Assembly: GCA_017412045.1 (NCBI GenBank)
Contig: JAFQOX010000105.1
Span: 43,120-107,119, forward strand
Length of the DNA stretch: 64,000 bases
Direction: 5' to 3'
DNA from: Clostridia bacterium
GTDB lineage: Bacteria > Bacillota > Clostridia > Oscillospirales > CAG-272
Part shown: positions 5,159 to 62,908 of the stretch, in pieces
Position numbering within the stretch: position 1 is the stretch's first letter
How the letters are laid out: each line of letters opens with the position of its first letter
Program-made: the position numbers and the translations under genes
Notes under the pieces: model-generated
Told to the model about the DNA's origin: nothing
What the model saw: only the letters and a program-made list of their open reading frames with translations
Database searches by the model: none

Positions 5159-5310
5159 ATCAAGAAAATTCAAAAAAGAATGGACAAAATCAATCATTCG
5201 TGATATGATACTCATGTAAAGTTTTTTAAATCTTCGGGAATCGCTCGAAATCAGCCTCGCCGGATCGCAGGCAACCGTGCGATTTACCGCTTTATGAAAA
5301 GGAGTATTTT

Positions 5311-13348: not shown

Positions 13349-13379
13349 GCGCCCTTTTTTATAAAAGGCGCTTGTTTTT
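13349..13379 (+). terminator. Intrinsic terminator after ispG
   Basis: GCGCC(C)TTTT-ttat-AAAAGGCGC followed by TTGTTTTT. It is preceded by a second palindrome, CCAATATGCC..GGCATATTGG (13308-13337). Confidence 0.6.
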
Positions 13380-38796: not shown

Positions 38797-38931
38797 AACA
38801 CCCCTTTCTTATCCATTTTTATATTACCATATTTTTGCAGAAATATCAATCGTAATCATCGTTTTTCCGATATTTTTTCGTCATTGGCGAAAAATATCCC
38901 CAACGCCGATCGTGGCGCCGGGGATATTTTT

Positions 38932-39039
38932 TATACCATAGGAAATTGCGCAAAATCAACCTCGCCGTTTTGCGTTGTTTGGATACAAGAATAACTGCGA
39001 TAGGCGAGCAGCTTCGAGTGGGCGTTGCCCACTTTTTTA
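38932..39039 (+). repeat. Structured intergenic element, copy A (candidate sRNA or MITE/PATE-like)
   Basis: TATACCATAGGAAATTGCGCAAAAT..CTCGCC..AACTGCGATA-GGCGAG..GTGGGC-gtt-GCCCAC-TTTTTT. Homologous to 52095-52326 (-) and 57384-57512 (+). Confidence 0.8.
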
Positions 39040-39047
39040 CTGTCTGA

Positions 39048-41027
39048 TCAATAATCAATAACTACCATCTGATGGCAAGCGAATCGGTCTACCGTGTAAT
39101 GCAAAATACCGTTTTCATAGGTGTACGCGATATCCTGCATCTGCGGAGCGAGATATACTCTCTTGGGCTGTTTATCCAGCTTCAGAGCGACTTCCGTATT
39201 GTAAACGGGAATCAGATCCTCGATGATTTCCGCGCGCTGACCGCGTTTTACGGGTGCGGCGTAAAGCAGATGGTTGACGTAACGGTTTTCTTCCTTCTGT
39301 TCCATCAGCGTGGTAACGCCCTGCGCGGGAAGATTGGTGGAGAGGGTTTTATTTTCGCCGAGCAATTTATTCAGAACGCCGATGACGGTTTCTCTTGCGA
39401 TCAAAGAGCCTTGGATTGCGTATTCCGTAAAGATATTGAAGGCGATGTAAGCGCCGTCCTTGCCGATCGTGATGGCGGGAGTCGTCACGGTAACGTCGTT
39501 CGGCGTCTGCTGATGGCTGCAAAAATGCTCTACGGTTCTTTCAAAGTACGGATTTTCGCGGAGACCGATCACCTCGCCGGTCGCATTGATTTCCGTTCCG
39601 TTCTCAAAGATGACGTAAGGTGCTTCCCAAAGACCGTTCATTTCGAACTTGGGACGGAGATAGCTGGGATTAAATTTTGCTTTTCCGACGTATTCCGCGC
39701 CGAGATCAAAAGCAAATCCCTTACCGTTTACGTAGGTGGCAGAAGTGCCGGAAGCGAGAATCTTACCGCCGTTTTTGACGAATTCACGGATCTTTTCAGC
39801 CAGGACTTCATCAACCATGCTGTCGTCGGTCATGATCAGAACCTTGTAGGGAGAGAAATCGCCCTGCACGTCTACGACGTTAAAGAGATACTTGCCTTCC
39901 AGAAGGATTCTGGATGCACCGGTGCTGCCCTTCCATGAGTGCTTTCCGGGAGGAACTGCGCCTGGGTGCAAATGACGGAATACGGACTCCTGACCGAGAA
40001 CGGCAACGTCAGCGACAGCCGTTACGTGATCGCACCACGCCTCTTTTTCCTCAACCTCCGCGTATGCGGCGCCGATCAGCTTATAGGTTGCTTCCTCCAT
40101 AAAGCCGAGCGGATGAAGCTGGTCGCCGATAGAGCACTTCGCGCCGTTGGCGATCGAAAGAGAAGCCTCGTAACGCAAAGCGTTCGGATGCTTGAAGCCT
40201 CCAAACTCGCCCCAGCTTCGATGGAATTTACCCGTCATGCCGAGATATTCCATGCCGAGGGTTCTTGCGTAAGCCGCAGAAAGAGGGAAGTGGTCGTAGC
40301 CCCAACCGCCGGTGGGAAGGCTTTCGATTTCCAGATGGGTATTGCCGTAAGCAAATTCTCTGTTGCCGATATAGAGATGTCCCGCATTGTGGAAGATCGG
40401 CAGACCGGGCTTGTACTTGTCAACGGTTTCTCTCATTCTGCGCGTATAGTTGTTGTAGGTTTCAACAGCCAGATTATAGGCGTTCTTAGGATCGTAAGGA
40501 TCCAGACCGCGATCACGCATGGTTTTCAGACAAGTCTGACAGTAGCAGGGGATGATCGCCACGATATCCGTGAAGATGCCGTCTGCATCATAGTTCTGAC
40601 AAACCTCGGCAACCTGATCCAGAAGATAATCAAGATAAGGAGAATTGAAGCAGAATCTGTGATATCCGGGAACCTTGAAGGTAGGTGTCCAGGCAATGGT
40701 TTCGTCTTCGTTACGAATGAGCCATTCGGGATGTCTTCTCGCCGTTTTTTCATCCAGTCCCGCGGAAAGGTATACGGGCGTTTTTACGCCGATTTCATGC
40801 GCCGCTTCAATCTGAGCGCCGAGCAGGTCGAAATCAAGGTGCGGGTGCATTTCGTTCGCCTTAGACGGATGGTAAGCCCAACCGTGATGGCATTTCGAAA
40901 AAACGGTGATGGAGTCTACGTGTCCGGTTTTCAAAGCCTGCTGAAACTGTTCTTTTGAAAATTTGCTTCCGATGCCTTCGATGCATTCGCTGGTATGGAA
41001 GTCAAGATGAACCTGTCTGAATCTCAT
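39048..41027 (-). CDS. Putative glycoside hydrolase (GHL6-like N-terminal TIM-barrel domain plus beta-galactosidase-trimerisation-like domain)
   Basis: 659 aa. The N-terminus MRFRQVHLDFHTS... matches the pattern I associate with the 'hypothetical glycosyl hydrolase 6' family. No signal peptide. Family assignment is from memory only. Confidence 0.5.
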   Translation of the reverse strand: MRFRQVHLDFHTSECIEGIGSKFSKEQFQQALKTGHVDSITVFSKCHHGWAYHPSKANEMHPHLDFDLLGAQIEAAHEIGVKTPVYLSAGLDEKTARRHPEWLIRNEDETIAWTPTFKVPGYHRFCFNSPYLDYLLDQVAEVCQNYDADGIFTDIVAIIPCYCQTCLKTMRDRGLDPYDPKNAYNLAVETYNNYTRRMRETVDKYKPGLPIFHNAGHLYIGNREFAYGNTHLEIESLPTGGWGYDHFPLSAAYARTLGMEYLGMTGKFHRSWGEFGGFKHPNALRYEASLSIANGAKCSIGDQLHPLGFMEEATYKLIGAAYAEVEEKEAWCDHVTAVADVAVLGQESVFRHLHPGAVPPGKHSWKGSTGASRILLEGKYLFNVVDVQGDFSPYKVLIMTDDSMVDEVLAEKIREFVKNGGKILASGTSATYVNGKGFAFDLGAEYVGKAKFNPSYLRPKFEMNGLWEAPYVIFENGTEINATGEVIGLRENPYFERTVEHFCSHQQTPNDVTVTTPAITIGKDGAYIAFNIFTEYAIQGSLIARETVIGVLNKLLGENKTLSTNLPAQGVTTLMEQKEENRYVNHLLYAAPVKRGQRAEIIEDLIPVYNTEVALKLDKQPKRVYLAPQMQDIAYTYENGILHYTVDRFACHQMVVIDY

Positions 41028-41122: not shown

Positions 41123-43990
41123 TTATCTTTCTACTTCTTCCATGATATAGGCTTCGAGAACGTCATTTTCCTTGATGTCGTTGAATTTCTCAAGACCGAT
41201 ACCGCATTCGTAGCCGGAAGCGACTTCCTTCACGTCATCCTTGAATCTGCGCAAGGAAGCGATCTTATCTTCAAAGATGATGACACCGTCACGAACGACA
41301 CGGATCTGGGACGCGCGGGTGACCTTACCGTCCGTGATATACGAGCCTGCAATCATGCCGACGTTGGGAACGTGAATGGTCTGGCGTACTTCCGCATGAC
41401 CGAGAACGACCTCGCGGTATACGGGCTTCAGCATACCCTTGATCGCAGCGGTAATCTCTTCGATGCATTCGTAAATAATGCGGTAGGTACGAATGTCAAC
41501 TCCCTGCAATTCCGCAGAGTCGATCGCCATCTTATCGGGACGGACGTTGAAGCCGACGATAATCGCATTGGAAGCCGCAGCAAGCATAACGTCGCCTTCA
41601 ATGATACCGCCGACGCCGGTGTGGATGACGTTAACCTTAACTTCATCGTTGCTGAGCTTCTCAAGAGAAGCTTTGACCGCTTCCGCAGAGCCCTTTACGT
41701 CTGCTTTGACGATAATATTGAGATCCTTTACGCCCTCTGCCATCTGCGCGAAGAGGTCGTCAAGGTTGACCTTTGCGTTTGCCTTGAAGATTTCTTCTTT
41801 TTCCTTCTGGCGGCGCTGCTCAGCGAGTTCCTTCGCCATGCGTTCGTCTTCGACTGCGTTGATCTCGTCACCTGCGGAAGGAACGGAGTCGAGACCGATA
41901 ATTTCTACGGGAACGGAGGGACCTGCCGTCTTGATGATCTGACCCTTATCGTTGGTCATCGCGCGAACGTGGCCGACTGCCGTACCGACGATGACGGTAT
42001 CACCCGTATGAAGCGTACCGTTCTGGATCAGTACGGTTGCAACGGGACCTCTGCCGCGGTCGAGCTTGGCTTCGATAACGATACCCTTCGCGCGGCGGTT
42101 GGGATCCGCCTTGAAGTCTTCCACTTCCGCAACGAGCAATACGTTTTCGAGCAGATCGTCAATGCCGTCGCCTCTCAGAGCGGATACGGGAACGCAGATC
42201 ACGTCACCGCCCCATTCTTCGGGAACGAGGTCGTATTTGGTAAGCTCCGTTTTGATCGCTTCGGGATTAGCCGTGGGCTTATCAATCTTATTGATCGCAA
42301 CGATAATCGGAATATCGGCAGCTTTTGCATGGTTGATCGCTTCTACGGTCTGAGGCATGATACCGTCGTCTGCCGCAACGACGAGAATGGCAATATCCGT
42401 GGATTTTGCGCCGCGCGCACGCATAGCGGTGAACGCTTCGTGTCCGGGCGTATCAAGGAAGGTGATATACTGTCCGTTACAGTCCACGCGGTAAGCACCG
42501 ATGTGCTGGGTAATACCGCCCGCTTCGCCTGCGGTCACGCGCGTATTTCTGATTGCGTCGAGAAGGGAGGTCTTACCGTGGTCAACGTGGCCCATAACGC
42601 ATACGACGGGAGGACGCGTTTCGAGCGTATCGGAATCCGCGGGCTCTTCGTCGAAGAGCTTTTCTTCGATGGTTACGACGACTTCCTTCGTTACCTTGGC
42701 GCCAAGCTCGTCAGCAACAAAGAATGCGGTATCGTAATCCACAGACTGGTTGACGGTCGCCATAACGCCCATCATCATCAGACGCTTGATAACTTCGCTG
42801 GCGGTAACCTTCAGCTTCTGCGCAAGCTCGGATACCGTGATCTCATCGGGAATGGTGATCGCAAGCTGTGTCTTTTTGATTTCCTGCTTCTTCATCTTAT
42901 CGGGAGCATTTTTGTTCTTGTCCTTGCTTCCCTTTGCGTAAGGATTATTGTTCTGCTGCTTTTTCAGCTTCTGTCTGTCGGGAGCATTGTTTCTGCGCGC
43001 GCTTTCGGGAACGAAGTTTTCAAGTCTTTCATCGTATTTGGAAAGGTCAACGGACGTTGTTCTCGTGTCTACGATTCTCGTCGTCTTGGGAGCCAGAGTC
43101 GGCTGTTCTTTCTTTTCCTTGGGCTTCTGCGGTTGCGGCTGAGGGATGGGACGGGGAGCGGGAGCGGCAGACTGTGTTACGGGAGCGGCAGGCGCGTTAT
43201 TCTGCGTATTCTGCGGTCTCTGCTGACGCTGGAAATTATTGTTGTTCTGGTTATTCTGATTATTCTGATTATTGTTGCCGCCGTTACCGTGTCCGCCGTT
43301 TCCGTTGTTGAACGGTCTCTGAGAATTCTGCTGACGGTCCTGCTGACGGTCCTGATTTCGCTGTCCGTAGGCAGGCTGTCTTCTGTCATTGTTATTTTCA
43401 TTTTTGTTAAAAGAGGGAGATTTCTGGAAATTGTTCGTGTTTCTTTCCGTACGTCTGGTCTCTTCGGACGCTCCTTGCTTGGCATCGTTATAAGATCTGG
43501 CGGGAGCTGTATTTTTATTCGTATATTCTTTCTTCGGCATTTCTCTTGTATTTTCCTTTGCAGACGTTTCTTTGATCGAACTTTCTTTTTCGGAGGTAAC
43601 TTCCTTAGCAGGAGCTGCTTCCTTTGCGGGAGTTGCTTCCTTTGCGGGAGCTGCTTCCTTAGCGGGAGCCGCTTCCTTAGCAGAAACTGCTTCCTTAGCG
43701 GGAGCCGTGTCTCTTGCGGGTTTGGATTTGGTTGTCTTGGCAACCGTATCCGTCTTCTTTGCCGTTTCTTTCGGAACGTTCGCCTTGCCGGCGAGATAGT
43801 CCGACATATTGGTTACCTGATTGCTTCCGGTAAGGCAACTCAAGAAAACGGAAAATTCTTCCGTTGTGACCGTTCCGGACGTTTTCTTATCAATGCCCGC
43901 CGCGGCAAGAACGTCAATGACGTCTTTGGGCTTCATGTTAAAATCTTTTGCGAGTGTGTTAATTTTTATCTGTTTGGAATTTGTGGCCAT
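41123..43990 (-). CDS. infB: Translation initiation factor IF-2
   Basis: 955 aa. GTPase G-domain ([23 protein letters not shown]). Long low-complexity N-terminus. Confidence 0.97.
43600..43715 (-). repeat. 18-nt tandem repeat inside infB encoding (A/S/T)-K-E-A-x-P units
   Basis: + strand gcttcctt(t/a)gc(g/a)ggag(c/t)(t/c) repeated about 6 times. Protein [34 protein letters not shown]. Confidence 0.85.
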
Positions 43991-47487: not shown

Positions 47488-47509
47488 AAATTGTGATTTT
47501 TCACAATTT
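47488..47509. promoter_or_regulatory. Operator-like perfect palindrome over the transcription start
   Basis: AAATTGTGA-tttt-TCACAATTT (9-bp arms), starting 2 nt after the -10 hexamer. Confidence 0.5.
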
Positions 47510-47531
47510 ATTACGAACGGAGAGGTGTTTT

Positions 47532-50500
47532 ATGCTCTATCAAAAAACGAAAGCAGAAAAACTCGACATCGGTTTATTTCAAAACCCAACGAAAGAATAT
47601 CGCGCGGCACCCTTCTGGTCATGGAACTGCGAGCTGAAAAAAGATGTTCTCGAAAAGCAAATAGAAATCATGAAGGAAATGGGCTTCGGCGGCTATTATA
47701 TGCATACGCGCGTCGGTATGGCAACGCCCTATCTTTCCGATGAATTCATGGATCTGATCGGCGCTTGTATCGAAAAAGGCAAAGAGATCGGCATGAACTC
47801 TTATCTTTACGACGAGGACCGTTGGCCATCCGGAACGGCCGGCGGCTTTACCGTCAAGGCTTCCGAGGAAAACAAACAAAAATTTCTCTTTTTTACGTAT
47901 CGTCCCTATAACGACGGATCGCTGACGCTGGAGAGCGATATTGCCAAAGCAAAAGAAGTGACCGACGAAAAATTCAAGTTTCTCGCCTGCTTCGATATTC
48001 TTCTGAATGCCGAAAGCAAATTGGTTTCCTACAGAAGGATCAATATCGGCGACGCGGCGGAGAGCGGGCATGAGAAATGGTTTGCCTATATGGAATACGG
48101 CGATTATTGTGACGTTATGCGCAAGGAAACCATTGACACGTTCATTGATTTGACGCACGAGCGCTATAAGGAACGCTTCGGACACGAATTTCAGACCAAT
48201 GCGCCCACGATTTTCACGGACGAGCCCCAGATGTATCCGAAAAAGGTGCTGGAGCACGCCTCTGATAAAACGGATGTCCGTTTACCTTATACCAACGATT
48301 TCGATGAAACCTTCGCGGAGAAATACGGCGTTCATATAGAGGATCACTTTCCCGTCCTCGTATGGGAAAGCGCCGACGGATCCGTTTCTCCCATACGTTA
48401 TTATTATCACGACCACTCCACGGAACGCTTCGCAGAAGCGTTTTGTGACAACGTCGGCAGATGGTGCGGAGAGAACGGAATCATTTTCACGGGACATATG
48501 ATGAACGAAGTGTCTCTTTACAGCCAGACGACCTCCGTCGGCGAGGCAATGCGCCATTACAGAGGCTTCCAGCTTCCCGGCATCGATATGCTCTGCGACT
48601 ACAGAGAGCTCAATACCGCAAAGCAAGCGCAGAGCGCCGCCCGTCAATACGGCAAGGAAGGTGTGATGAGCGAGCTTTACGGCGTGACAAACTGGGATTT
48701 TGATTTCCGCGGACACAAATTACAGGGTGACTGGCAGGCGGCAATGGGAATCACGCACAGAGTTCCACATCTTTACTGGGTATCTATGGGGGGAGAAGCC
48801 AAACGCGATTATCCCGCTTCAATCGGTCATCAATCGCCGTGGTACAAAGAGTATTCCCATATCGAGGATCACTTTGCCCGCGTGAATACCGTTATGACGA
48901 GAGGAACGCCCGACGTCCGTATCGCCGTGATTCATCCGATCGAATCGTATTGGATTCATTTCGGACCTGCGGATCAAACGGGCACGCACCGCTCCGATAT
49001 TGGCGACCGCTTCGAAAATATCACAAAATGGCTTCTTTTCGGTTTGCACGATTTTGATTTCGTGGCGGAATCCTTGCTCCCTGAACAGTATCGGGAATCT
49101 GAAGACGGCTTTGTGATCGGCGAAATGAAGTATCAGACCGTAATCGTCCCCTATACGGAAACCATTCGCCGTACCACGCTCGAGGCGTTGAAAAAATTCC
49201 GTGCGGCGGGCGGTGAGGTTATTTTCATGGGAAAAGCGCCGATCTACGTCGATGCCGTTCCCTCCGACGAGCCGAGCGCATTCGCTGCACAGTGCAAAAC
49301 CATTCCGTGGTCCGAATCCGCTTTGCTGGAGGCCGTAGAGCACAACCGCTTCCTGGACATCAGAAAAAGGGACGGTTATCCGCCCTCCAATATCATTTAT
49401 CAGCTCCGAAACGATAACGGCTGTAAGCACCTCTTTCTCAGCCACGTCTATAAGACGGATTACGACACGGCGCCCGTGGTCACGACTTCCGTTACGCTGA
49501 AGGGTGAATGGAGCGTTTCGGAATACGATACCATGAAGGGAGAAAAACGCCGCGTTCCCGTCGTCTACAGAAACGGCAATACCGTATTTCCATGGGCGCA
49601 AGCCGTTTGCGACTCTCTCCTTCTGGAATTGAAGGAAGGAAGGGATGCGGAAGCGGGCGACGCTTTTTATCGGGATCCTCGTTATATCAAGGTGGAATAT
49701 CCCGCGCATCGGGCTTCCTATGAGATGGAAGAGCCGAACGTATTGCTTCTCGACCGTCCAAGCTTTTCCTTCAGAGGAAGCGAATGGAGTGAGCCGACGG
49801 ACGTTCTGAAGATCGACGATGCGGTCCGCCGTATCATCGGTGATACCACTAACACCGTCAGCCGCAGAAAGAGACCTCAGCCGTGGCAGCTTCCTCTCGA
49901 TAAAAATCCAAAGGAAGTCGTCTCTCTCCGTTTCACGGTGGAATCGGATATCGAATACGAGGGCGCGCTTCTCGCGCTGGAGTATCCGCAGTATTCCGAA
50001 ATTTTCTTTAACGGCGTTTCCGTTCCCGTAGAAATCGAAGGCACTTACGTGGACGATTCCATCTCGACGGTACGCCTCCCCAAAATCGAGAAGGGAGAAA
50101 ACGAGCTCATCATCCGCCTCCGCTACGGCAATATCGACTCCGTGGAATCCTACTATATTCTCGGCAAGTTCGGCGTGGAGGTACACGGCTATTACGCGAA
50201 GATCACCGCGCTTCCCGATTACCTGTGCTTTGAAAGCATCACCAATCAGAAGATGGGCTTTTACGGCGGTAATCTGAAATATTCCTTCAAAATGAACGGC
50301 GGCGGCAAAAAGACGATCGAAGTCTCCAAATACCGCGGTGCCGTTATCAAGGTTCTGGTTGACGGCGAAGAAAAGGGATATATTGACTTCCCGCCGCACA
50401 GACTTCCGCTCGGGGAATTGAGCGAGGGAGAACACACCGTCGAGCTGATCCTTTACGGCAACCGTATGAACACGTTCGGTCAGCTCCATAAGACCGACGA

Positions 50501-50618
50501 GCATCTGGCATGGACGGGTCCCGACTCTTGGCGTACGAAGGGCAGATTCTGGACTGATGAATACATGCTTACAAGAACCGGTATTCTTACCGCTCCGCGT
50601 ATTCTGACGGAAGAATGA
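47532..50618 (+). CDS. Large putative glycoside hydrolase (family not assignable by eye)
   Basis: 1028 aa from ATG 47532 (RBS GGAGAGG). The N-terminal R.APFWSWN..L....L..QI..MKEMGFGGYYMH.R.G pattern is seen in large bacterial glycosidases. No signal peptide. Confidence 0.5.
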   Translation: MLYQKTKAEKLDIGLFQNPTKEYRAAPFWSWNCELKKDVLEKQIEIMKEMGFGGYYMHTRVGMATPYLSDEFMDLIGACIEKGKEIGMNSYLYDEDRWPSGTAGGFTVKASEENKQKFLFFTYRPYNDGSLTLESDIAKAKEVTDEKFKFLACFDILLNAESKLVSYRRINIGDAAESGHEKWFAYMEYGDYCDVMRKETIDTFIDLTHERYKERFGHEFQTNAPTIFTDEPQMYPKKVLEHASDKTDVRLPYTNDFDETFAEKYGVHIEDHFPVLVWESADGSVSPIRYYYHDHSTERFAEAFCDNVGRWCGENGIIFTGHMMNEVSLYSQTTSVGEAMRHYRGFQLPGIDMLCDYRELNTAKQAQSAARQYGKEGVMSELYGVTNWDFDFRGHKLQGDWQAAMGITHRVPHLYWVSMGGEAKRDYPASIGHQSPWYKEYSHIEDHFARVNTVMTRGTPDVRIAVIHPIESYWIHFGPADQTGTHRSDIGDRFENITKWLLFGLHDFDFVAESLLPEQYRESEDGFVIGEMKYQTVIVPYTETIRRTTLEALKKFRAAGGEVIFMGKAPIYVDAVPSDEPSAFAAQCKTIPWSESALLEAVEHNRFLDIRKRDGYPPSNIIYQLRNDNGCKHLFLSHVYKTDYDTAPVVTTSVTLKGEWSVSEYDTMKGEKRRVPVVYRNGNTVFPWAQAVCDSLLLELKEGRDAEAGDAFYRDPRYIKVEYPAHRASYEMEEPNVLLLDRPSFSFRGSEWSEPTDVLKIDDAVRRIIGDTTNTVSRRKRPQPWQLPLDKNPKEVVSLRFTVESDIEYEGALLALEYPQYSEIFFNGVSVPVEIEGTYVDDSISTVRLPKIEKGENELIIRLRYGNIDSVESYYILGKFGVEVHGYYAKITALPDYLCFESITNQKMGFYGGNLKYSFKMNGGGKKTIEVSKYRGAVIKVLVDGEEKGYIDFPPHRLPLGELSEGEHTVELILYGNRMNTFGQLHKTDEHLAWTGPDSWRTKGRFWTDEYMLTRTGILTAPRILTEE

Positions 50619-50807: not shown

Positions 50808-51977
50808 TCATTCGAAAATGAGATCTGCTTCTTCTTGAACCAGATCAGTCTCTGCTTTCATGTCGTTTTCGATGTCAGCGATAACGTGGTCACCGATCAT
50901 ACCGGCGGCATAGGTGGAGAAGGATTCGCGTAGGAGTGCTTTGATTTTCTCTGTCTTTTCCTCGTTTGTAAGCAGGGAGATCGCCTCATCTGCCAAGCCC
51001 TCCAGCGTATCCGCACTGACGGCAAATTCGTTGTTCAGGAAGAAATCCAGGTTTCTCGTTTCACAGCCCGCTACGACATTCAGAAGAACCATCGGGAGCA
51101 ATTTGGTCGCGGACTCCGTGGAGCTGAGACCGCCCGGCTTCGTCATAACGACGTCGCAGGCATCCATATAGACGTTCATTTTATTGGTAAAGCCGATTAC
51201 GCGGAGATTGGGGTCGGAGGAAAGCTTCTCAAATTTATTGACAAGCTTTTCGTTGCTTCCGCAAACAACGATCAGCTTCGCATCTGCGGGCAACTTTTTC
51301 AAAAGCTCTTTACCGAGCTTATAGACGGGACCGCAACCCATACTGCCGCACATCAGAAGAATGACGCGTTTATCCTTCGGCAAGCCCAGAAAATCCCTCG
51401 CCTTTTCCTTGGAAATGGATTTGTGGAATGCGCGCTTGATCGGAATTCCCGTCGGAATCAAAAGATTTTCGTTGACACCGTAATTGAGATAGTCGGGGAT
51501 CAGATATTTATGCGCAATGAAAAACGCATCTGCCTTGACTTCCTCAATACCGGGGTAAGAGGCGTAATCCGTCGCAATGAAATAGGAGCGGATTGAGAGA
51601 TTATAGCATTTTTTCACCTCCGTCATCATCATGCAAGCAAAAACGTGTGTGCAAAGTACGGCATCAAACTGATTTTCGCTCAGATAGCCGTACAGTCTTT
51701 CCGTTCCTCTTTTCATGATGGCGTACGTCAAGGATTCGGTTCCCGGCTTGGAGGGGTGGTTTTCCACAAACTTATAGCCCGCTCCAAACAAGCCCGGCGC
51801 CTTTTTATAAAGTAATATATGCCCTTTGCTGATAATATCCGATTTCAAACGGGAATCAAACGCCAGCGCGTCCTGAATCTCGCTGAAAATATTGCGGGAA
51901 TCAAAATATTCCTTAACTGCCGCTGCGGCAGAATTGTGTCCGCCGCCCGTATTACAGGAAAGAATCAAAATTTTCAT
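50808..51977 (-). CDS. MGDG-synthase-family glycosyltransferase (UgtP-like diacylglycerol glycosyltransferase, GT28)
   Basis: 389 aa. N-terminal MKILILSCNTGGGHNSAA motif of the MGDG synthase family. Confidence 0.8.
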   Translation of the reverse strand: MKILILSCNTGGGHNSAAAAVKEYFDSRNIFSEIQDALAFDSRLKSDIISKGHILLYKKAPGLFGAGYKFVENHPSKPGTESLTYAIMKRGTERLYGYLSENQFDAVLCTHVFACMMMTEVKKCYNLSIRSYFIATDYASYPGIEEVKADAFFIAHKYLIPDYLNYGVNENLLIPTGIPIKRAFHKSISKEKARDFLGLPKDKRVILLMCGSMGCGPVYKLGKELLKKLPADAKLIVVCGSNEKLVNKFEKLSSDPNLRVIGFTNKMNVYMDACDVVMTKPGGLSSTESATKLLPMVLLNVVAGCETRNLDFFLNNEFAVSADTLEGLADEAISLLTNEEKTEKIKALLRESFSTYAAGMIGDHVIADIENDMKAETDLVQEEADLIFE

Positions 51978-52021
51978 GCATGAAACACCTCCGAATCGGT
52001 ATTGAAAAATATATTTTCTAC

Positions 52022-52050
52022 ATTATACCACAACAGTGAAAAAAAATCAA
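52022..52050 (-). promoter_or_regulatory. Sigma-A-type promoter (extended -10) of the glycosyltransferase gene
   Basis: Minus strand TTGATT-17 nt-TATAAT with TGg upstream of the -10. Confidence 0.5.
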
Positions 52051-52094
52051 TCGTTTTTTCCGTTGTCGCCGTATTTTTTTGATTTTCTCCAAAA

Positions 52095-52201
52095 GTAAAA
52101 AGCGGCGAATCGCCGCTGATGGTTGCCGCCGTATCGCAGTTGATTACGACTCCGTACATGGCTCGACGGCGGATCTGATTTGCGTAATTTCCTATGGTAT
52201 A
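52095..52201 (-). repeat. Structured intergenic element, copy B2 (most divergent)
   Basis: Element strand: ATACCATAGGAAATTACGCAAAT..CCGCCG..AACTGCGATA-CGGCGG..GCGGCG-att-CGCCGC-TTTTTA. Confidence 0.75.
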
Positions 52202-52326
52202 AAAAGCGGGCAACGCCCGCTGGAAAACTGCTTGCTCTGCAAGCTGTGTGCTCGCCGATCGCAGTTAAGACTGTATCCAAACGATATAAACGGCGAGGTT
52301 CTATTTTCGCAATTTCCTATGGTATA
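52199..52326 (-). repeat. Structured intergenic element, copy B1
   Basis: Nearly identical to copy C (57384-57512) over more than 100 nt. It ends in GCGGGC-gtt-GCCCGC-TTTTT, which runs directly into copy B2. Confidence 0.85.
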
Positions 52327-52366
52327 AAAAAACCGCCTTGACGAAGCTTTCGCCAAGGCGGTTTTT
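52325..52366 (-). terminator. Intrinsic terminator after the YbjN-like gene
   Basis: Minus strand ACCGCCTTG-gcgaaagcttcgt-CAAGGCGGT followed by TTTTTTT. Confidence 0.75.
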
Positions 52367-52389
52367 ACTTTACGGATCGGAAACCGCAA

Positions 52390-52866
52390 TTATTCGTTTT
52401 CCTTATCGATGAACTGCTTAACCGTCATCAAGCCTTTGGAAATCATGAAGAATTTTTCGTTATACTGATCGGATGTAAACGCGGTCAAAAGGATCATGCG
52501 TTCCAGCACGTCGTCGCTGGGAATTCCATCTCGATAGGTTGCGGTCATTCTGAATCTGATTTCGCCGTCACTCAAATCGTAATCAAAGGAGCCTTCAACA
52601 AGACCGTAGTTTGCAACGTTGACGGCAATCGCGGCATCGACGCGCTTTTCTTCGGTGATGTAGAAAGGCATAATTGACAAAACCTGTACAACTTCGTTTT
52701 TGGGCTTAACGACAACGATGAAGTTTACGGGAAGGCTATCGCCCTTGATCGTTCCCTTGACCATCAGCTTTTCTTCGTATTTATCGTACTTCCAGTCGCG
52801 ATCATCCAACATTTCAACCAGCGCGTCAAAAACTTCGGTTGCTTTATCCATGTTTACTTCTGACAT
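52390..52866 (-). CDS. YbjN-domain protein (putative chaperone-like/sensory transduction regulator family)
   Basis: 158 aa. Acidic, with a DRDWKYD... F.V....N..V.V......I.E pattern resembling the YbjN family. RBS GGAGGAG. Confidence 0.55.
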   Translation of the reverse strand: MSEVNMDKATEVFDALVEMLDDRDWKYDKYEEKLMVKGTIKGDSLPVNFIVVVKPKNEVVQVLSIMPFYITEEKRVDAAIAVNVANYGLVEGSFDYDLSDGEIRFRMTATYRDGIPSDDVLERMILLTAFTSDQYNEKFFMISKGLMTVKQFIDKENE

Positions 52867-56101: not shown

Positions 56102-57310
56102 ATGGGATTGCATGATACCGTATCGGCAGAACGCCTTCACATCGGATTTTTCGGAATGCGAAACGCAGGAAAGTCGAGCCTTGTGAACGCGGTCACCGGA
56201 CAGGCGCTCTCCGTCGTGTCCGACGTCAAGGGAACGACGACCGACCCCGTAAAAAAAGCAATGGAGCTGCTTCCGCTCGGTCCGGTCGTGATCCTGGATA
56301 CCCCCGGCATCGACGACGAGGGCGATCTGGGAGCAATGCGGGTGGAAAAAGCCAGACAAGCCCTCGTCAAGACCGATATTGCCGTTCTGGTGGCAGACGG
56401 CGCCGTCGGCTTGAGCGGGGAGGACAAGAAGCTGATCCGACTTTTTGACCAAAAGAAGATTCCCCACATCGTCGCCTTCAATAAGGCGGATCTGGTGCAT
56501 GATCGGGTGACGCTCGGTAAAAACGAAATTTACGTGAGTGCGCTAACGGGTGAGGGCGTTGAAGCTCTGAAGGAAATGCTGGGTGAATTCGGCAAGCCCC
56601 TGCAAAGCCCCAAGCTCCTCGTGCGCGATCTTCTCTCGGCAGGCGATCTCGTGGTGCTGGTAACACCCATTGACGAGTCTGCGCCCAAGGGACGGCTGAT
56701 CCTTCCGCAACAGATGGTCTTGCGTGACGTTCTGGACGCGCACGCGACGGCGATCGTTTGCCAGGACACCGAGCTCGCCCAAACGCTGGAAAATCTTGGG
56801 CAAAAGCCCCGTATGGTCATTACCGATTCGCAGGTGTTCGGTAAGGTTGCGAAAAATACTCCCGCGGATATTCCGTTGACCTCCTTCTCGATCCTGATGG
56901 CGCGCTACAAGGGTGATCTGAAACCGCTGGTGCAGGGCTTTGCCGCCCTGAATCATCTGCAAAACGGCGATAAGATACTGATCTCCGAGGGCTGTACGCA
57001 CCACCGCCAATGCAAGGATATCGGAACCGTCAAAATCCCCGGATGGATCGAAGCCTTTTCGGGTGTGAAGCCGGATTATCGCTTCACCTCGGGCGGAGAA
57101 TATCCCGAGGATCTCAGCGAATACCACGTGATCGTCCATTGCGGCGGTTGTATGCTGAACGAAGCGGAAATGAAGCGCCGTATGGAAAGTGCGAAGGTGC
57201 AGGGCATTCCGATTGTCAATTACGGCATCGCCATCGCAGGTATGCACGGCATTCTGAGGCGCAGTCTGGAGCTGTTCCCCGACGTGCTCGCCTTACTTGA
57301 TACGCATTGA
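56102..57310 (+). CDS. hydF: [FeFe]-hydrogenase maturation GTPase HydF
   Basis: 402 aa. G1 GMRNAGKSSLVNA, DTPG, NKAD. C-terminal CTHHRQC...HCGGC cluster ligands. Confidence 0.92.
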   Translation: MGLHDTVSAERLHIGFFGMRNAGKSSLVNAVTGQALSVVSDVKGTTTDPVKKAMELLPLGPVVILDTPGIDDEGDLGAMRVEKARQALVKTDIAVLVADGAVGLSGEDKKLIRLFDQKKIPHIVAFNKADLVHDRVTLGKNEIYVSALTGEGVEALKEMLGEFGKPLQSPKLLVRDLLSAGDLVVLVTPIDESAPKGRLILPQQMVLRDVLDAHATAIVCQDTELAQTLENLGQKPRMVITDSQVFGKVAKNTPADIPLTSFSILMARYKGDLKPLVQGFAALNHLQNGDKILISEGCTHHRQCKDIGTVKIPGWIEAFSGVKPDYRFTSGGEYPEDLSEYHVIVHCGGCMLNEAEMKRRMESAKVQGIPIVNYGIAIAGMHGILRRSLELFPDVLALLDTH

Positions 57311-57334: not shown

Positions 57335-57375
57335 AAAAAGCCTTGATTCGTTTTTGGAATCAAGGCTTTTTCGTG
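57335..57375 (+). terminator. Intrinsic terminator after hydF
   Basis: AAAAAGCCTTGATTC-gtttttg-GAATCAAGGCTTTTT. Confidence 0.8.
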
Positions 57376-57383
57376 ATTCTTTT

Positions 57384-57512
57384 TATCGCATAGAAATTTG
57401 CGCAGATAGAACCTCGCCGTTTATATCGTTTGGATACAGTCTTAACTGCGATAGGCGAGCACACAGCTTGCAGAGCAAGCAGTTTTCCAGCGGGCGTTGC
57501 CCGCTTTTTTAT
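57384..57512 (+). repeat. Structured intergenic element, copy C
   Basis: TATCGCATAGAAATTTGCGCAGAT..CTCGCC..AACTGCGATA-GGCGAG..GCTTGC-aga-GCAAGC..GCGGGC-gtt-GCCCGC-TTTTTT. Confidence 0.85.
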
Positions 57513-57523
57513 GGATCACCGTA

Positions 57524-58630
57524 TCATTTCCACCATTTGGGATCGTGACAGACTTCGGGTGCCGTTTCTATCCATCCGATCGAAAAAGCGGTGCATTCGC
57601 CGATCCGATTGTCCGTAATATCGTCATACTGCCACAGCATAATATCGTTCGGATAGTGATCGCTTGCCAGACGCTCCCGCTCGTACGAGGCGTAAAAATC
57701 CTCCGCGCCGAACAGATGCAGGATCTCGTGTGCAACGGTGGAGGCTCTCGAGCCGTCCTCGCGCTTATGCGGCGAACCGCCGAGATGATCGGCGAAGATC
57801 ACGCAATGCTCCGAATACTGCAGATAACCGGTTGAAAGACTGTTTCTGGCGTACGATCTTCCCGCTTTGTTCAGGAAATTCAGAAAAATGACGTCGTTAT
57901 CCGGATGCATGGCTTTGTAATAGGAATACAATTCCCAATTGGATTTCAGACCGATGTCGGCGGCGCACTGATCCGTAACGTCCTTCGTGGAACCGCCGTC
58001 ATGCAGATTGGGATTCACGGTGCCTTCATATTTCAGCTCGTATCCACTGAGCGGGGTGGAATAGCTTTCTACGACAAAATTCAGGTCAACGCCCCACGCC
58101 CTTGCGCTTTCCTCAAGATAATCGAGCCCGGGGCTAATTTCCTTTTGCATAAATGAGAAAACCTCTTCCCTCATCCATTGGCTTTGATCGTCGTCCGTAA
58201 ACATCAGAACGACCACGACGTCTCCTTTCAGCGTACGGCAATTTGCCAGCTCGTAGCTGGGTCTTAACTTATCCTGCTCTGTGTCCGTGATACCGGGCAA
58301 AAGCGTGAACCGGAAGGGCGGAATTTCCGCTTGCTGAATGATTTCGTTACAAACGGAGCAAATCCGGCTCTTTTTTCCGCTTTCCTTTGCCGTTGCGATC
58401 TTTTCCATGATCCATGCTTCGCCCGTATGATCGGTGATCGGCAATACGGTCTTTTCTTTTTTTCCGCATCTGCACTTGCGCTCGGCAAGTCCCTCGGATA
58501 AGCAGGTCGCGCGCGTCAGGACCGTCCACTCTCCCCACTTATGCGTATGCGCGTAACGGAATATGAGGACGGGCAAAATCACGATCAAAACGGAAAAAAA
58601 CGAGATTTTTATCATCAATTGACGTTTCAT
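57524..58630 (-). CDS. Membrane-anchored putative zinc metallopeptidase (HExxH) with an N-terminal Cys-rich module
   Basis: 368 aa. N-terminal TM, H.WGEW.V...ATC...G...R.C.CG module plus a CSVC pair, and VAHEILHLFGAEDFY (HExxH). Confidence 0.5.
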   Translation of the reverse strand: MKRQLMIKISFFSVLIVILPVLIFRYAHTHKWGEWTVLTRATCLSEGLAERKCRCGKKEKTVLPITDHTGEAWIMEKIATAKESGKKSRICSVCNEIIQQAEIPPFRFTLLPGITDTEQDKLRPSYELANCRTLKGDVVVVLMFTDDDQSQWMREEVFSFMQKEISPGLDYLEESARAWGVDLNFVVESYSTPLSGYELKYEGTVNPNLHDGGSTKDVTDQCAADIGLKSNWELYSYYKAMHPDNDVIFLNFLNKAGRSYARNSLSTGYLQYSEHCVIFADHLGGSPHKREDGSRASTVAHEILHLFGAEDFYASYERERLASDHYPNDIMLWQYDDITDNRIGECTAFSIGWIETAPEVCHDPKWWK

Positions 58631-59981: not shown

Positions 59982-62213
59982 ATGGACTACTATGCTCACA
60001 GTAAAGAAATAGACGGAGAAAAAATATATCAAAGCATTCGGGATCACGCGGAAGGCGTCGCGCAAAAAATGATTTCGTTTTCCGATGGATTTTGTAAAGA
60101 AAGCTTTGCAAAATCCATCGCTCTGTTACACGACATCGGTAAATATCAATCGGATTTTCAACTGAGGATTCGCGGCAAGAACGTTCAGGTCCCTCACGCG
60201 ATCTGCGGCTCGAAGGAATTGAAAAAATACGGATTGCCGGACGCGGCGGCATATATCATTTCCGGACATCACGCAGGGCTTCCTGATAAAGGGCCTGACA
60301 TTGCGCCGTCGACGTTGGAATATCGACTGAAGCGGGAAGAAACGCAGGATTATAGCGAATATGAACGCGAGCTGAAATCCTTGATCCCCGCAGGAAGTGA
60401 CACACCGTATCAGAACGCGGTCACTTCTGCCTCTGGAGAATCGGCTTGGAAGGAATACGCATTTTGGATCAGAATGATGTTTTCCTGTCTTGTGGACGCC
60501 GATTTTCTGGATACGGAGGAATTTTGTTCCGGAAATATTGACCGAGGAATGTCGGCAGATTTTGAAAACTGCTTGAAGATATTAAAAGATAGGCTTGCGG
60601 TCTTACAGGACCAAGCCGTTACGGACACGGAAAAGGCAAGAAGCATTTTGCAAAAACAGGTATTGTCTCATAAAAATGAAAATGCGAACTTTTATTATAT
60701 GAACATGCCGACGGGAAGCGGAAAAACTTTGACGAGTATGCTTTTTGCATTGGAGCGCTTGCTTGCCGCGAAGAAAAAACGCATTATTTACGTCATACCT
60801 TATACGAGCATCATAGATCAGAATGCCAAGGTGTTTAAAGATCTGTTTGGAGAGGCGTGCGTGCTGGAGCATCATTGCAATTTTGATTACGATTCCTATG
60901 AAAATATTTCGACAAAAGAAAAAGTACGCCGCACTTCGGAAAATTGGGATGCGCCGATCATTGTAACGACAAACGTTCAGTTTTTTGAATCCATATACAG
61001 CAATCGACCTTCAAAGCTGAGAAAATTACACAATATTGCAAACAGCATTCTGATTTTTGATGAAGCGCATATGCTGCCAAAGGGATATTTTCAGCCTTGT
61101 CTGGAAGCTGTAAAAATATTGACGGAGAAATACGGTTGCGAAGCCGTATTTCTGACGGCAACCATGCCGGATTTTGATCATTGGCTGAAAACGTTTCAAT
61201 GCGAGGGGGTATCTACCTGCAATCTGATTCGGGACACGTCTTGCTTTGAAGCGTTCAAGCGGTCCGAAATCGAAGAGCTTGGCGAGCTTGACGGTGAATC
61301 TCTTCTGGCGCGGGTAATGGAGCATCAAAATGCTTTGGTCGTTGTCAATACGCGAAAAACGGCAAAAATGCTTTATGATCAATACAGCGGAAAAAAATAT
61401 CATCTTTCCACTTATATGAACCATTATGACAGGGACCGCGTGATTGCGAACGTCAAAAAGTCGTTGGCTGACGGCGAGGCGTTTTGCCTGTTTTCCACTT
61501 CCTTGATTGAAGCGGGCGTGGATCTGGATTTTGACGCGGTGTTCCGTGAAAGAGCGGGATTGGATAACCTTTTGCAAACGGCGGGGCGCTGTAACCGAAG
61601 CGGGAAAAAGGAATGCTCTGAATGTAAAAGCTATTCTTTTTCTTTGGAATCTCCGTCTTTCGGCAAAACACCGGATGAATTGAAAATCAGACGTTACTAC
61701 ACGCAGCAAACCTTCGAGCATTACGGAGACATCACAGCACCCGATGCCATTCGCTTTTATTATGATAAGCTGTATGATGATGAAAAACAAAAAATGAACG
61801 CCAACAATTTCCTTTATGCAAAGCCCGTCGGTATGAATACCGACTATTTGAGACAAGCGAAAATGTTTAAAATCAGCCAGATCTTCGCTCGAACGTCTTA
61901 TTTCAATTTTGCAGGCTATGCCAAAGATTTTCATTTGATTGACGATCATACGAAGCCGCTCCTGATTATCAATTCCGAAAACCGCTCCGAGGTTGAATCG
62001 CTTTTGACAACATTGCAATATGCTGAATCCGGCAGAGCGATTTCTCGGAAATTGCAAAAATATATGATTTCTCTCCGTCCTTACGAATGGGATGTTTTGA
62101 AAAAATCCGGTGTGATTCAGACCAGAGAAGGCTTTGACTGTCTGGCAAATGAAAATTATTATCATTCCGAAACGGGAATCCGTTTCGAGGACGATACCGA
62201 TTATATTTATTAA
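59982..62213 (+). CDS. cas3: Type I CRISPR-associated helicase/endonuclease Cas3 (HD + DExH helicase)
   Basis: 743 aa. HD nuclease (LLHDIGKY, SGHHAGL), helicase motif I MPTGSGKT, motif II FDEAH, motif VI-like QTAGRCNR. Confidence 0.93.
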   Translation: MDYYAHSKEIDGEKIYQSIRDHAEGVAQKMISFSDGFCKESFAKSIALLHDIGKYQSDFQLRIRGKNVQVPHAICGSKELKKYGLPDAAAYIISGHHAGLPDKGPDIAPSTLEYRLKREETQDYSEYERELKSLIPAGSDTPYQNAVTSASGESAWKEYAFWIRMMFSCLVDADFLDTEEFCSGNIDRGMSADFENCLKILKDRLAVLQDQAVTDTEKARSILQKQVLSHKNENANFYYMNMPTGSGKTLTSMLFALERLLAAKKKRIIYVIPYTSIIDQNAKVFKDLFGEACVLEHHCNFDYDSYENISTKEKVRRTSENWDAPIIVTTNVQFFESIYSNRPSKLRKLHNIANSILIFDEAHMLPKGYFQPCLEAVKILTEKYGCEAVFLTATMPDFDHWLKTFQCEGVSTCNLIRDTSCFEAFKRSEIEELGELDGESLLARVMEHQNALVVVNTRKTAKMLYDQYSGKKYHLSTYMNHYDRDRVIANVKKSLADGEAFCLFSTSLIEAGVDLDFDAVFRERAGLDNLLQTAGRCNRSGKKECSECKSYSFSLESPSFGKTPDELKIRRYYTQQTFEHYGDITAPDAIRFYYDKLYDDEKQKMNANNFLYAKPVGMNTDYLRQAKMFKISQIFARTSYFNFAGYAKDFHLIDDHTKPLLIINSENRSEVESLLTTLQYAESGRAISRKLQKYMISLRPYEWDVLKKSGVIQTREGFDCLANENYYHSETGIRFEDDTDYIY

Positions 62214-62227
62214 GAAAGGAGTTTTGT

Positions 62228-62908
62228 ATGGGATTTGGATTTCAATTCACCGTGAAGGGTGATTACGCGCTTTTTACCCGTCCCGAATTTGCGGTGGAGC
62301 GCGTCAGCTACGACGTGCCGACACCGTCCGCACTCGTAGGGCTGATTTCATCCGTCTATTGGCATCCGGGTGTCAAATATATCATCGACGAAATTCGGAT
62401 TTATCATCCCGTCAATTTTGTCAATATCCGTCGGAATGAGGTTTCGGATAAGCTTTCGCCCAAGATGGTAAAAGAACAAATGCTTGGGACAAGAAACGAT
62501 CTCGGCATCTACACGAAGGAAAGCATCAGTCAACGGGCATCGCTTCTTCTGAAGGACGTTCACTATGGCGTTTCCGCGCATTTTGAATTGACAAAAGAAA
62601 AAGATGCCGAGCAGTCTGAGGAGAAGGTATATGCGATCCTCTCACGGCGGCTTAAAAAGGGACAGTATTTTTCACAGCCGTTTTTGGGCTGCAGGGAATT
62701 TCCCGCGCGCGTGGAATGGGTGGAGCGTTTGCCCGAAAGCACGCTTGATTACAGCGCGGATCTCGGTTTTATGCTCTACGATTTACAATATCGTAAAGAT
62801 GCCAAGGGCAATGCTCTGGACAGCGCGGATCCGCGATTCTACCGTCCCCGCGTGGAAAACGGCGTGATCGACGTTCAAAAATGGGCAAAGGAGGGCTTGC
62901 GATGTTAA
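62228..62908 (+). CDS. cas5: Type I-C CRISPR-associated protein Cas5c (Cas5d)
   Basis: 226 aa. VKGDYALFTRPEFAVERVSYDVPTPSA...YWHPGV...IRRNEV pattern of Cas5d. Confidence 0.92.
   Translation: MGFGFQFTVKGDYALFTRPEFAVERVSYDVPTPSALVGLISSVYWHPGVKYIIDEIRIYHPVNFVNIRRNEVSDKLSPKMVKEQMLGTRNDLGIYTKESISQRASLLLKDVHYGVSAHFELTKEKDAEQSEEKVYAILSRRLKKGQYFSQPFLGCREFPARVEWVERLPESTLDYSADLGFMLYDLQYRKDAKGNALDSADPRFYRPRVENGVIDVQKWAKEGLRC

Follow-up and report, generated by a model that had tools for sequence, protein, structure and literature searches.

A short structured repeat behind intrinsic terminators in uncultured rumen and gut Clostridia

The stretch of Clostridia DNA analysed here (64,000 nucleotides, in the following called the window) carries four copies of a short, structured, non-coding repeat, and approximately 17 further copies were recovered from related Oscillospiraceae/Clostridia MAGs and metagenome contigs. 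The copies hold a fixed position and orientation behind a hairpin and T-run, several stand in tandem pairs, and mosaics and hybrids occur among them. Promoter, ORF and transposase are all absent alongside the copies. With a confidence slightly above even we assign the family to the non-autonomous interspersed repeats, as a terminator-tail-targeting and new family of a known kind, whose copies would have arisen by insertion.

The sequence-only reading had proposed four copies at 52326 to 52199 (copy A, minus strand), 52201 to 52095 (copy B, minus strand), 57384–57512 (copy C, plus strand) and 38932–39039 (copy D, plus strand). All of them were confirmed with a covariance model of the repeat family, which was built from nine copies and run over the 64 kb window. 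Exactly four matches were obtained, at 77 to 127 bits: copy A at 52197–52331 (−, 121.9 bits), copy B at 52094–52196 (−, 77.4 bits), copy C at 57379–57512 (+, 120.4 bits) and copy D at 38927–39040 (+, 126.9 bits); the next best score in the window was 16.9 bits. The 19-nt 5′ block occurs three times in the window at up to three mismatches, in comparison to 0.08 occurrences expected by chance. Copies A and C are 94.5 % identical and have the mini-hairpin module in common, copy D is about 85 % identical to both, and copy B is the outlier. A terminator scan revealed a GC hairpin of 7–8 bp with a T-run at the 3′ end of all four. A candidate for a fifth copy at 5218–5298 (14.7 bits; repeat family D2) is merely the 5′ UTR of the next gene.

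The unit has a length of 105–130 bp and no terminal inverted repeats. It starts with (T5–7)-A/G-T and 0–3 nt, followed by the nearly invariant, unpaired block YATAGRAAATTGCGCAAAA, whose conservation between species exceeds that of the rest of the unit. Behind 3–4 variable nucleotides, a closing stem P1 (CYYGCC/GGCRRG) encloses a hairpin P2 with the conserved loop TGTTTGGATACA; P2 is followed by AACTKSGATA, in the two types AACTGCGAT or AACTTGGAT, and then by the 3′ arm of P1. A linker or an optional mini-hairpin module of 25 nt leads from there to the GC (terminator) hairpin, which exists in three sequence types, and to the next T-run. The combination of modules varies with respect to the three terminator types, the two AACTKSGAT types and the presence or absence of the mini-hairpin. 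The stems, the three terminator variants and the T-runs described earlier are all present in the sequence, and copies A and C have the optional mini-hairpin (GCTTGC-aga-GCAAGC) as well. One block of copy A had been misread, since it reads AACTGCGATC instead of AACTGCGATA. L006, L013 and copy C of L071/L072 have lost the T-run, and the stem is broken in L010 and L006.

In copy A the 5′ block CATAGGAAATTGCGAAAAT is located at 52321–52303, the P1 arms were assigned by folding to 52297–52292 and 52256–52251, the mini-hairpin to 52244–52230, and the terminator scan placed the terminator at 52221–52205 with its T-run at 52205–52201, all on the minus strand. Copy B, a divergent subtype, is placed on this T-run. 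Its P1 arms lie at 52172–52167 and 52131–52126 (−), its terminator at 52117–52101 with the T-run at 52101–52097 (−, terminator scan), and a second B-type copy is present in L035. On the plus strand, copy C possesses a leading T-run at 57380–57384, a 5′ block from 57389, P1 arms at 57413–57418 and 57454–57459, then the mini-hairpin and a terminator at 57489–57505 (terminator scan). The corresponding positions in copy D, likewise on the plus strand, are 38927–38932 for the leading T-run, 38937 for the start of the 5′ block and 38961–38966 and 39003–39008 for the P1 arms, and 39016–39034 for the terminator (terminator scan).

Pairing was tested on 19 distinct copies with 500 shuffles. Paired cells account for 84.9 %, compared to 79.6 % in the shuffles, none of which (0/500) reached the observed value, and pairing falls to 33–49 % when the partners are slid by 1–3 columns. 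Pairs with double changes number eight, a count reached in 140 of the 500 shuffles. In P1 one pair covaries, being C-G in eight copies and U-A in six. In P3 three pairs change together, which is a swap of the whole terminator module; the pair-preserving changes noted earlier in the 3′ hairpin do keep the pairing, but the hairpins are exchanged as whole modules. The four compensatory changes attributed to copy B (CCGCCG/CGGCGG) are actually a register shift by one base pair. Its stem differs from the common one by the loss of the U-A pair and the gain of an adjacent G-C pair that is found in copy A as well, and the natural A/B hybrid of L026 retains pairing (UCGCCG/CGGCGG). The transition mismatches divide about equally between G⋅U (19 cells) and A⋅C (23 cells), without favouring a strand, and thus give no pointer to RNA specifically. 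Folding z-scores range from −1.7 to −2.9 on the element strand and from −0.7 to −2.2 on the other strand. A further pairing of AUUGCG with UGCGAU was rejected, as it does not covary with the TTGGAT variant. Pairing is maintained, and the partner may be RNA or DNA. The structural evidence is real but thin, with few independent events: the conserved closing stem and the kept pairing stand, but the covariation put forward earlier for selection on a fold is weaker than claimed.

The position of the copies follows one rule. At 16 of 16 independent sites (three in the window, 13 on other contigs) a hairpin of unrelated sequence with a T-run is situated 0–8 nt upstream, in each case on the element strand, and the orientation is invariant. 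No conserved sequence was found upstream of the T-run, where the hairpins are unrelated to one another. Nearly all copies are flanked on both sides by a T5–7 run with A(T), which could represent a target duplication, a recombination core or a part of the element. The left junction consists of T5–7, A/G-T and 0–3 nt that correlate with the subfamily, GC accompanying the TATAG copies and TC or GT the AGAAAATT copies; judged from these subfamily-specific bases, it looks element-derived. The right junction consists of a T-run with a variable AT, AC, AA or CC, contains the stop codon of the convergent gene in L002, L011 and L016, and looks target-derived. Such a pattern, element-like on the left and target-like on the right, is expected if the exchange occurs within the T-run. 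Copies are often located between convergent genes.

Tandem pairs were observed at four sites (A/B, L002, L016 and L018), with the members separated by a single T-run. In all four pairs the partners are of different subtypes and the second member is placed on the first one's own terminator. This unlikeness points towards separate arrival rather than local duplication. As a related observation, an orphan 5′ block (CTATAGAAAATTATCC...) lies directly 3′ of the full copy in L007 (5002–5030), probably as what is left of a second tandem copy that has decayed.

The native terminators next to the window copies could be assigned. That of a YbjN-like gene (52390–52866) forms a hairpin at 52333..52361 on the minus strand (−21.8 kcal mol−1) followed by T7, and its T-run (52332–52326) leads directly into copy A. 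Copy C starts with a second T-run 8 nt beyond the hydF terminator (57335..57371, +, terminator scan; gene at 56102–57310, Pfam HydF) and ends 11 nt short of the stop codon of a convergent gene (57524–58630). In front of copy D a bidirectional native hairpin is found at 38894..38926 (−18 and −24 kcal mol−1 on the two strands). This hairpin is the terminator of the minus-strand GHL6 (glycosidase) gene (39048–41027), and its plus-strand T-run (38927–38932) runs into copy D, which is thus antisense in the 3′ UTR of the GHL6 gene, between stop codon and terminator. A same-strand gene upstream of copy D is absent, showing that the position tracks a DNA motif and not a transcript. In total, about three of ten strong native terminators in the window are occupied. 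Those at 13355 (+), 5153 (+), 22074 (−), 50757 (−), 38084 (+) and 1002 (−) are unoccupied, and the one at 13355 even ends in TTTTTTAT. T-run and hairpin are consequently insufficient for occupancy.

The genes flanking the copies have nothing in common. The window encodes housekeeping genes and the start of a type I-C CRISPR-Cas operon (59982–62908), with Cas3 (HD and DEAD helicase; 59982–62213) and Cas5c (62228–62908); the operon continues past the window end, and no link to the repeat was seen. Additionally, the infB (IF-2) gene (41123–43990, −) contains seven tandem 18-nt repeats in its N-terminal region (43565–43738), a coding repeat. An ORF of 1041 aa at 47493–50618 (+) has no Pfam match; in relatives a protein of about 1028 aa is called here.

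Relatives were sought by scanning species-representative genomes and metagenomes once each. True copies were found in the Oscillospiraceae MAG SIG642 (SVRL01; L002 with two copies, L003 and L006), in the goat-caecum Clostridia MAG RGIG1744 (L007) and in eight contigs of the metagenome assembly JAEIGA01 (L010–L014 and L016–L018), the remaining pattern matches of both scans being chance hits. Viral, phage and plasmid collections yielded zero copies; 27 viral matches to the 5′ block alone are due to chance, with covariance model scores of at most 18.6 bits. With the strict pattern, 4–5 copies are seen per MAG. The carriers form a narrow clade of uncultured rumen and gut Oscillospiraceae/Clostridia.

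In other samples, contigs from this species have copies at the three sites that are occupied in the window. Of about 17 such short-read contigs, eight terminate within a copy, as expected of a multicopy repeat in short-read assembly. In one sample's 17 kb contig (L021, 3670–3751) the sequence past copy A diverges completely from the window; neither copy B nor the MGDG-synthase promoter follows, and the new sequence is absent from the window. Either the repeat has been the site of a rearrangement or the contig is an assembly chimera. Between species the occupied sites differ. In L035 (82 % YbjN identity) the YbjN terminator is empty and two copies are present elsewhere on the contig, one of them the B-type copy; the HydF terminators are empty in relatives of 80–81 % identity, and the genes flanking foreign copies have no homologs in the window. 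An empty-site search through orthologs met lost synteny (YbjN relatives at up to 66 % identity, HydF relatives at 80–81 %), and all same-species contigs carry the copies. As this search yielded no empty and filled pair at one orthologous site, we infer the insertion itself and give the boundaries of the unit as approximate.

The copies are mosaics of exchangeable modules that recombine with each other. L026 holds a single hybrid copy at the A/B site, which switches at AACTGCGATA from A in its 5′ part to B in its 3′ part. In the closest relative (MAG GCA_017532985.1, 97 % HydF identity), copy C (L071/L072) lacks the mini-hairpin module as well as 11 nt that include its T-run, and copy A (L020) carries a different 5′ block. 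These hybrids and variants indicate that copies exchange sequence and that the terminator function of individual copies is unprotected. The same MAG shows an insertion of another kind. An IS3-family element, whose ORF has rve integrase domains, is situated in the loop of the native hairpin before copy D (L040 1–520, JAFXIP010000438.1; corresponding to window position ~38910), with a junction reading ccccaacgccgatc|taatgtgccccctgtcaag. Here, too, a terminator hairpin has served as target, for an element unrelated to the repeat.

According to the reading we prefer, a new copy would enter, always in the same orientation, a T-run that follows a hairpin (in practice an intrinsic terminator's tail), with the exchange taking place by recombination inside this run. 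This might be carried out by a trans-acting site-specific recombinase or transposase encoded outside the window, or might result from copy-choice template switching at hairpin stalls, primed by T-run microhomology. Since the unit ends in its own hairpin and T-run, each insertion would recreate the target, which would explain the tandem pairs; the same feature would keep transcription termination intact, so that insertions would be tolerated. After insertion, modules may be exchanged and copies homogenised by gene conversion, and tandem copies may collapse by recombination. A more far-reaching variant appears doubtful to us: the element would be actively mobile and recognise the structure “any hairpin plus T-run” instead of a sequence, or it would be a mobile sRNA gene with the 5′ block as functional seed. 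Candidates for such recognition would be a structure-specific recombinase acting on terminator hairpins or a (retro)insertion coupled to RNA or transcription termination. If true, structure-recognising mobility of this type would make the repeat a specialised terminator-hopping element for which no enzyme class is known.

Several other explanations have to be weighed against the mobile repeat. The sequence-only reading had left the choice between an sRNA and the ends of a mobile element, and the evidence favours the mobile, interspersed-repeat side and disfavours the sRNA. A multicopy family of trans-acting sRNA genes, with the 5′ block as seed, P1/P2 as structural or protein-binding part, the 3′ hairpin and U-run as own terminator and a location behind terminators chosen for its insulation, is the main rival, which we hold at well below even. 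The architecture, with an unpaired conserved block at the 5′ end, then a stem-loop and an intrinsic terminator, is typical of sRNAs, the 5′ block is nearly invariant between species, the closing stem stays paired through the changes from C-G to U-A, and folding is slightly better on the element strand. However, the promoter scan found no sigma-70 promoter facing any of the four window copies, and the sole conserved upstream sequence is the T-run. Readings of the 5′ block as alternative promoters fail as well, their second element being unconserved: sigma-H (−35 AGGAAAT) would need a GAAT box, which is not conserved, sigma-K/E (CATA...) does not fit, half of the copies having TATAG in the block, and the extended −10 TGCTATAGG is restricted to one subfamily; manual reading of the alignments gave no conserved two-part motif for alternative sigma factors. 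A seed-target search for complements of the 5′ block or loop in the window returned only the copies themselves. The lost T-runs, the broken stems and the balance of G⋅U and A⋅C cells also speak against an sRNA, and the shuffled modules, the hybrids and the broken assemblies are what a repeat would show. The invariant position behind a T-run, the unlike tandem partners, the mosaics and hybrids, the assembly breaks within the element, the species-variable sites and the missing promoter together favour the mobile repeat.

We regard as unlikely that the copies are host-selected cis elements of 3′ ends, acting as backup terminator, read-through insulator or mRNA 3′-end stabiliser, or binding a protein at the palindrome TTGCGCAA, and spread through their usefulness in place. 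They always lie behind terminators and supply a second one in the same direction, are frequent between convergent genes, and SPRITE has been proposed to be co-opted in this way (PMC3049150). Against this stand copy D, antisense to the only transcript crossing it, the copies that have lost their T-run, the low share of occupied strong terminators in the window and the unalike flanking genes; the conserved 5′ block and closing stem would be left unexplained. Very improbable in our view is a PATE of an IS200/IS605-type single-strand transposon, whose Y1 TnpA would read the end hairpins and insert the element 3′ of a short T-rich target, although the absence of terminal inverted repeats, the oriented insertion 3′ of a T-rich motif ending in TTTAT and the hairpin close to the 3′ end would fit. 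Hairpin ends of this type had been suggested earlier and are unsupported: the end hairpins (P1/P2 versus terminator) have unrelated sequences, copies within 19 kb face both ways (+, −, −, +) with no clear GC-skew switch, neither a TnpA nor a TnpB gene is present in the window, and Rfam matches to IS605-orfB or omega-RNA were not obtained. Moreover, a 3′ hairpin in three interchangeable sequences would be intolerable to a sequence-specific TnpA.

ORFs through the copies have no Pfam match, and single-nucleotide indels between copies disrupt every reading frame, in support of the earlier non-coding assignment. Transposase, recombinase and reverse transcriptase are absent among the genes of the 64 kb window, and an autonomous partner element was not found. 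Rfam 15 gave zero matches at gathering score over the whole window, and a permissive search of 51900–52500 reached at best 26 bits against a threshold of 54, over the upstream terminator, in accord with the earlier reading, which could place the repeat in no named RNA family. A CsrA sponge (GGA in 5′ block, loop and junction) was rejected because GGA is missing from many copies, and a Xer/dif half-site (AATTTCCTAT, TGCGCA) because at most 8 of 11 positions agree and the full 28-bp site is absent. A MITE does not fit with the missing terminal inverted repeats and a window that encodes no transposase. REP/BIME sequences, which are RAYT-associated, are imperfect palindromes of 20–40 nt with a GTAG/CGTC tag, often in inverted pairs. 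The present unit has 105–130 nt with a long non-palindromic 5′ block and forms direct tandem pairs. For a class C group II intron this unit is too short, and no Rfam group II match exists.

The rule followed by the copies is unusually clean, with one orientation, a place behind hairpin and T-run, a regenerated target and tandem stacking, and the mechanism is thus testable. In practice, the repeat breaks short-read assemblies of these rumen and gut Clostridia, is mistakable for an sRNA or riboswitch in RNA-motif screens, and adds terminators and antisense 3′ UTR sequence beside housekeeping genes. Little is understood about the small interspersed repeats that occur in Gram-positive bacteria (BOX, RUP, SPRITE, bcr), most of which have no known means of spreading. 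Mobile elements that target terminators or palindromes are represented by class C bacterial group II introns and by the IS3-family elements IS1397 and ISKpn1 in REP loops, which insert in fixed orientation at or after hairpins of variable sequence. Those elements are autonomous, have 1–2 kb or more and encode a reverse transcriptase or transposase, whereas the present one has 105–130 bp and neither ribozyme domains nor terminal inverted repeats.

The closest likeness in size and behaviour is found among two described repeats. SPRITE from S. pneumoniae has about 105 bp, is terminator-like, has no known transposase or target duplication and is enriched at gene 3′ ends and between convergent genes (PMC3049150). 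The present family resembles it in size, in being non-coding and interspersed without real terminal inverted repeats or an identified transposase, in the terminator-like hairpin with T-rich tract at its end, in the enrichment at 3′ ends and convergent genes and in slow turnover. In contrast, SPRITE forms one long duplex (18 bp) with a long U-rich tail, whereas a conserved unpaired 5′ block, a separate closing stem and hairpin and a short GC terminator are found here. SPRITE has no known target or flanking repeat, whereas the present copies all abut a hairpin with T-run and stack in tandem; the host taxon is unrelated, and the two are set apart by description. In the Bacillus cereus group, the bcr1 (group A BCR) repeats have 100–155 bp and no transposase, are flanked by the short direct repeat TTTAT, keep their fold by compensatory changes and have been proposed to move in a manner like site-specific recombination (Okstad 2004 and Kristoffersen 2011, as summarised in PMC3184786 and PMC6542083). 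Similar to them, the present family shows a short T-rich flank (T5–7AT compared to TTTAT), a conserved fold and a distribution that depends on the relative. bcr1 differs in its cruciform of two stem-loops, and targeting or carriage of terminators is not described for it in these sources; its copies number tens to more than 100 per genome. Since host clade and architecture both differ, the present family belongs, as far as can be judged from the descriptions, to neither the SPRITE nor the bcr1 sequence family. Its copies are short, non-coding, multicopy and intergenic, with a conserved fold and variable sites, as is characteristic of small interspersed repeats of the SPRITE/bcr1 type.
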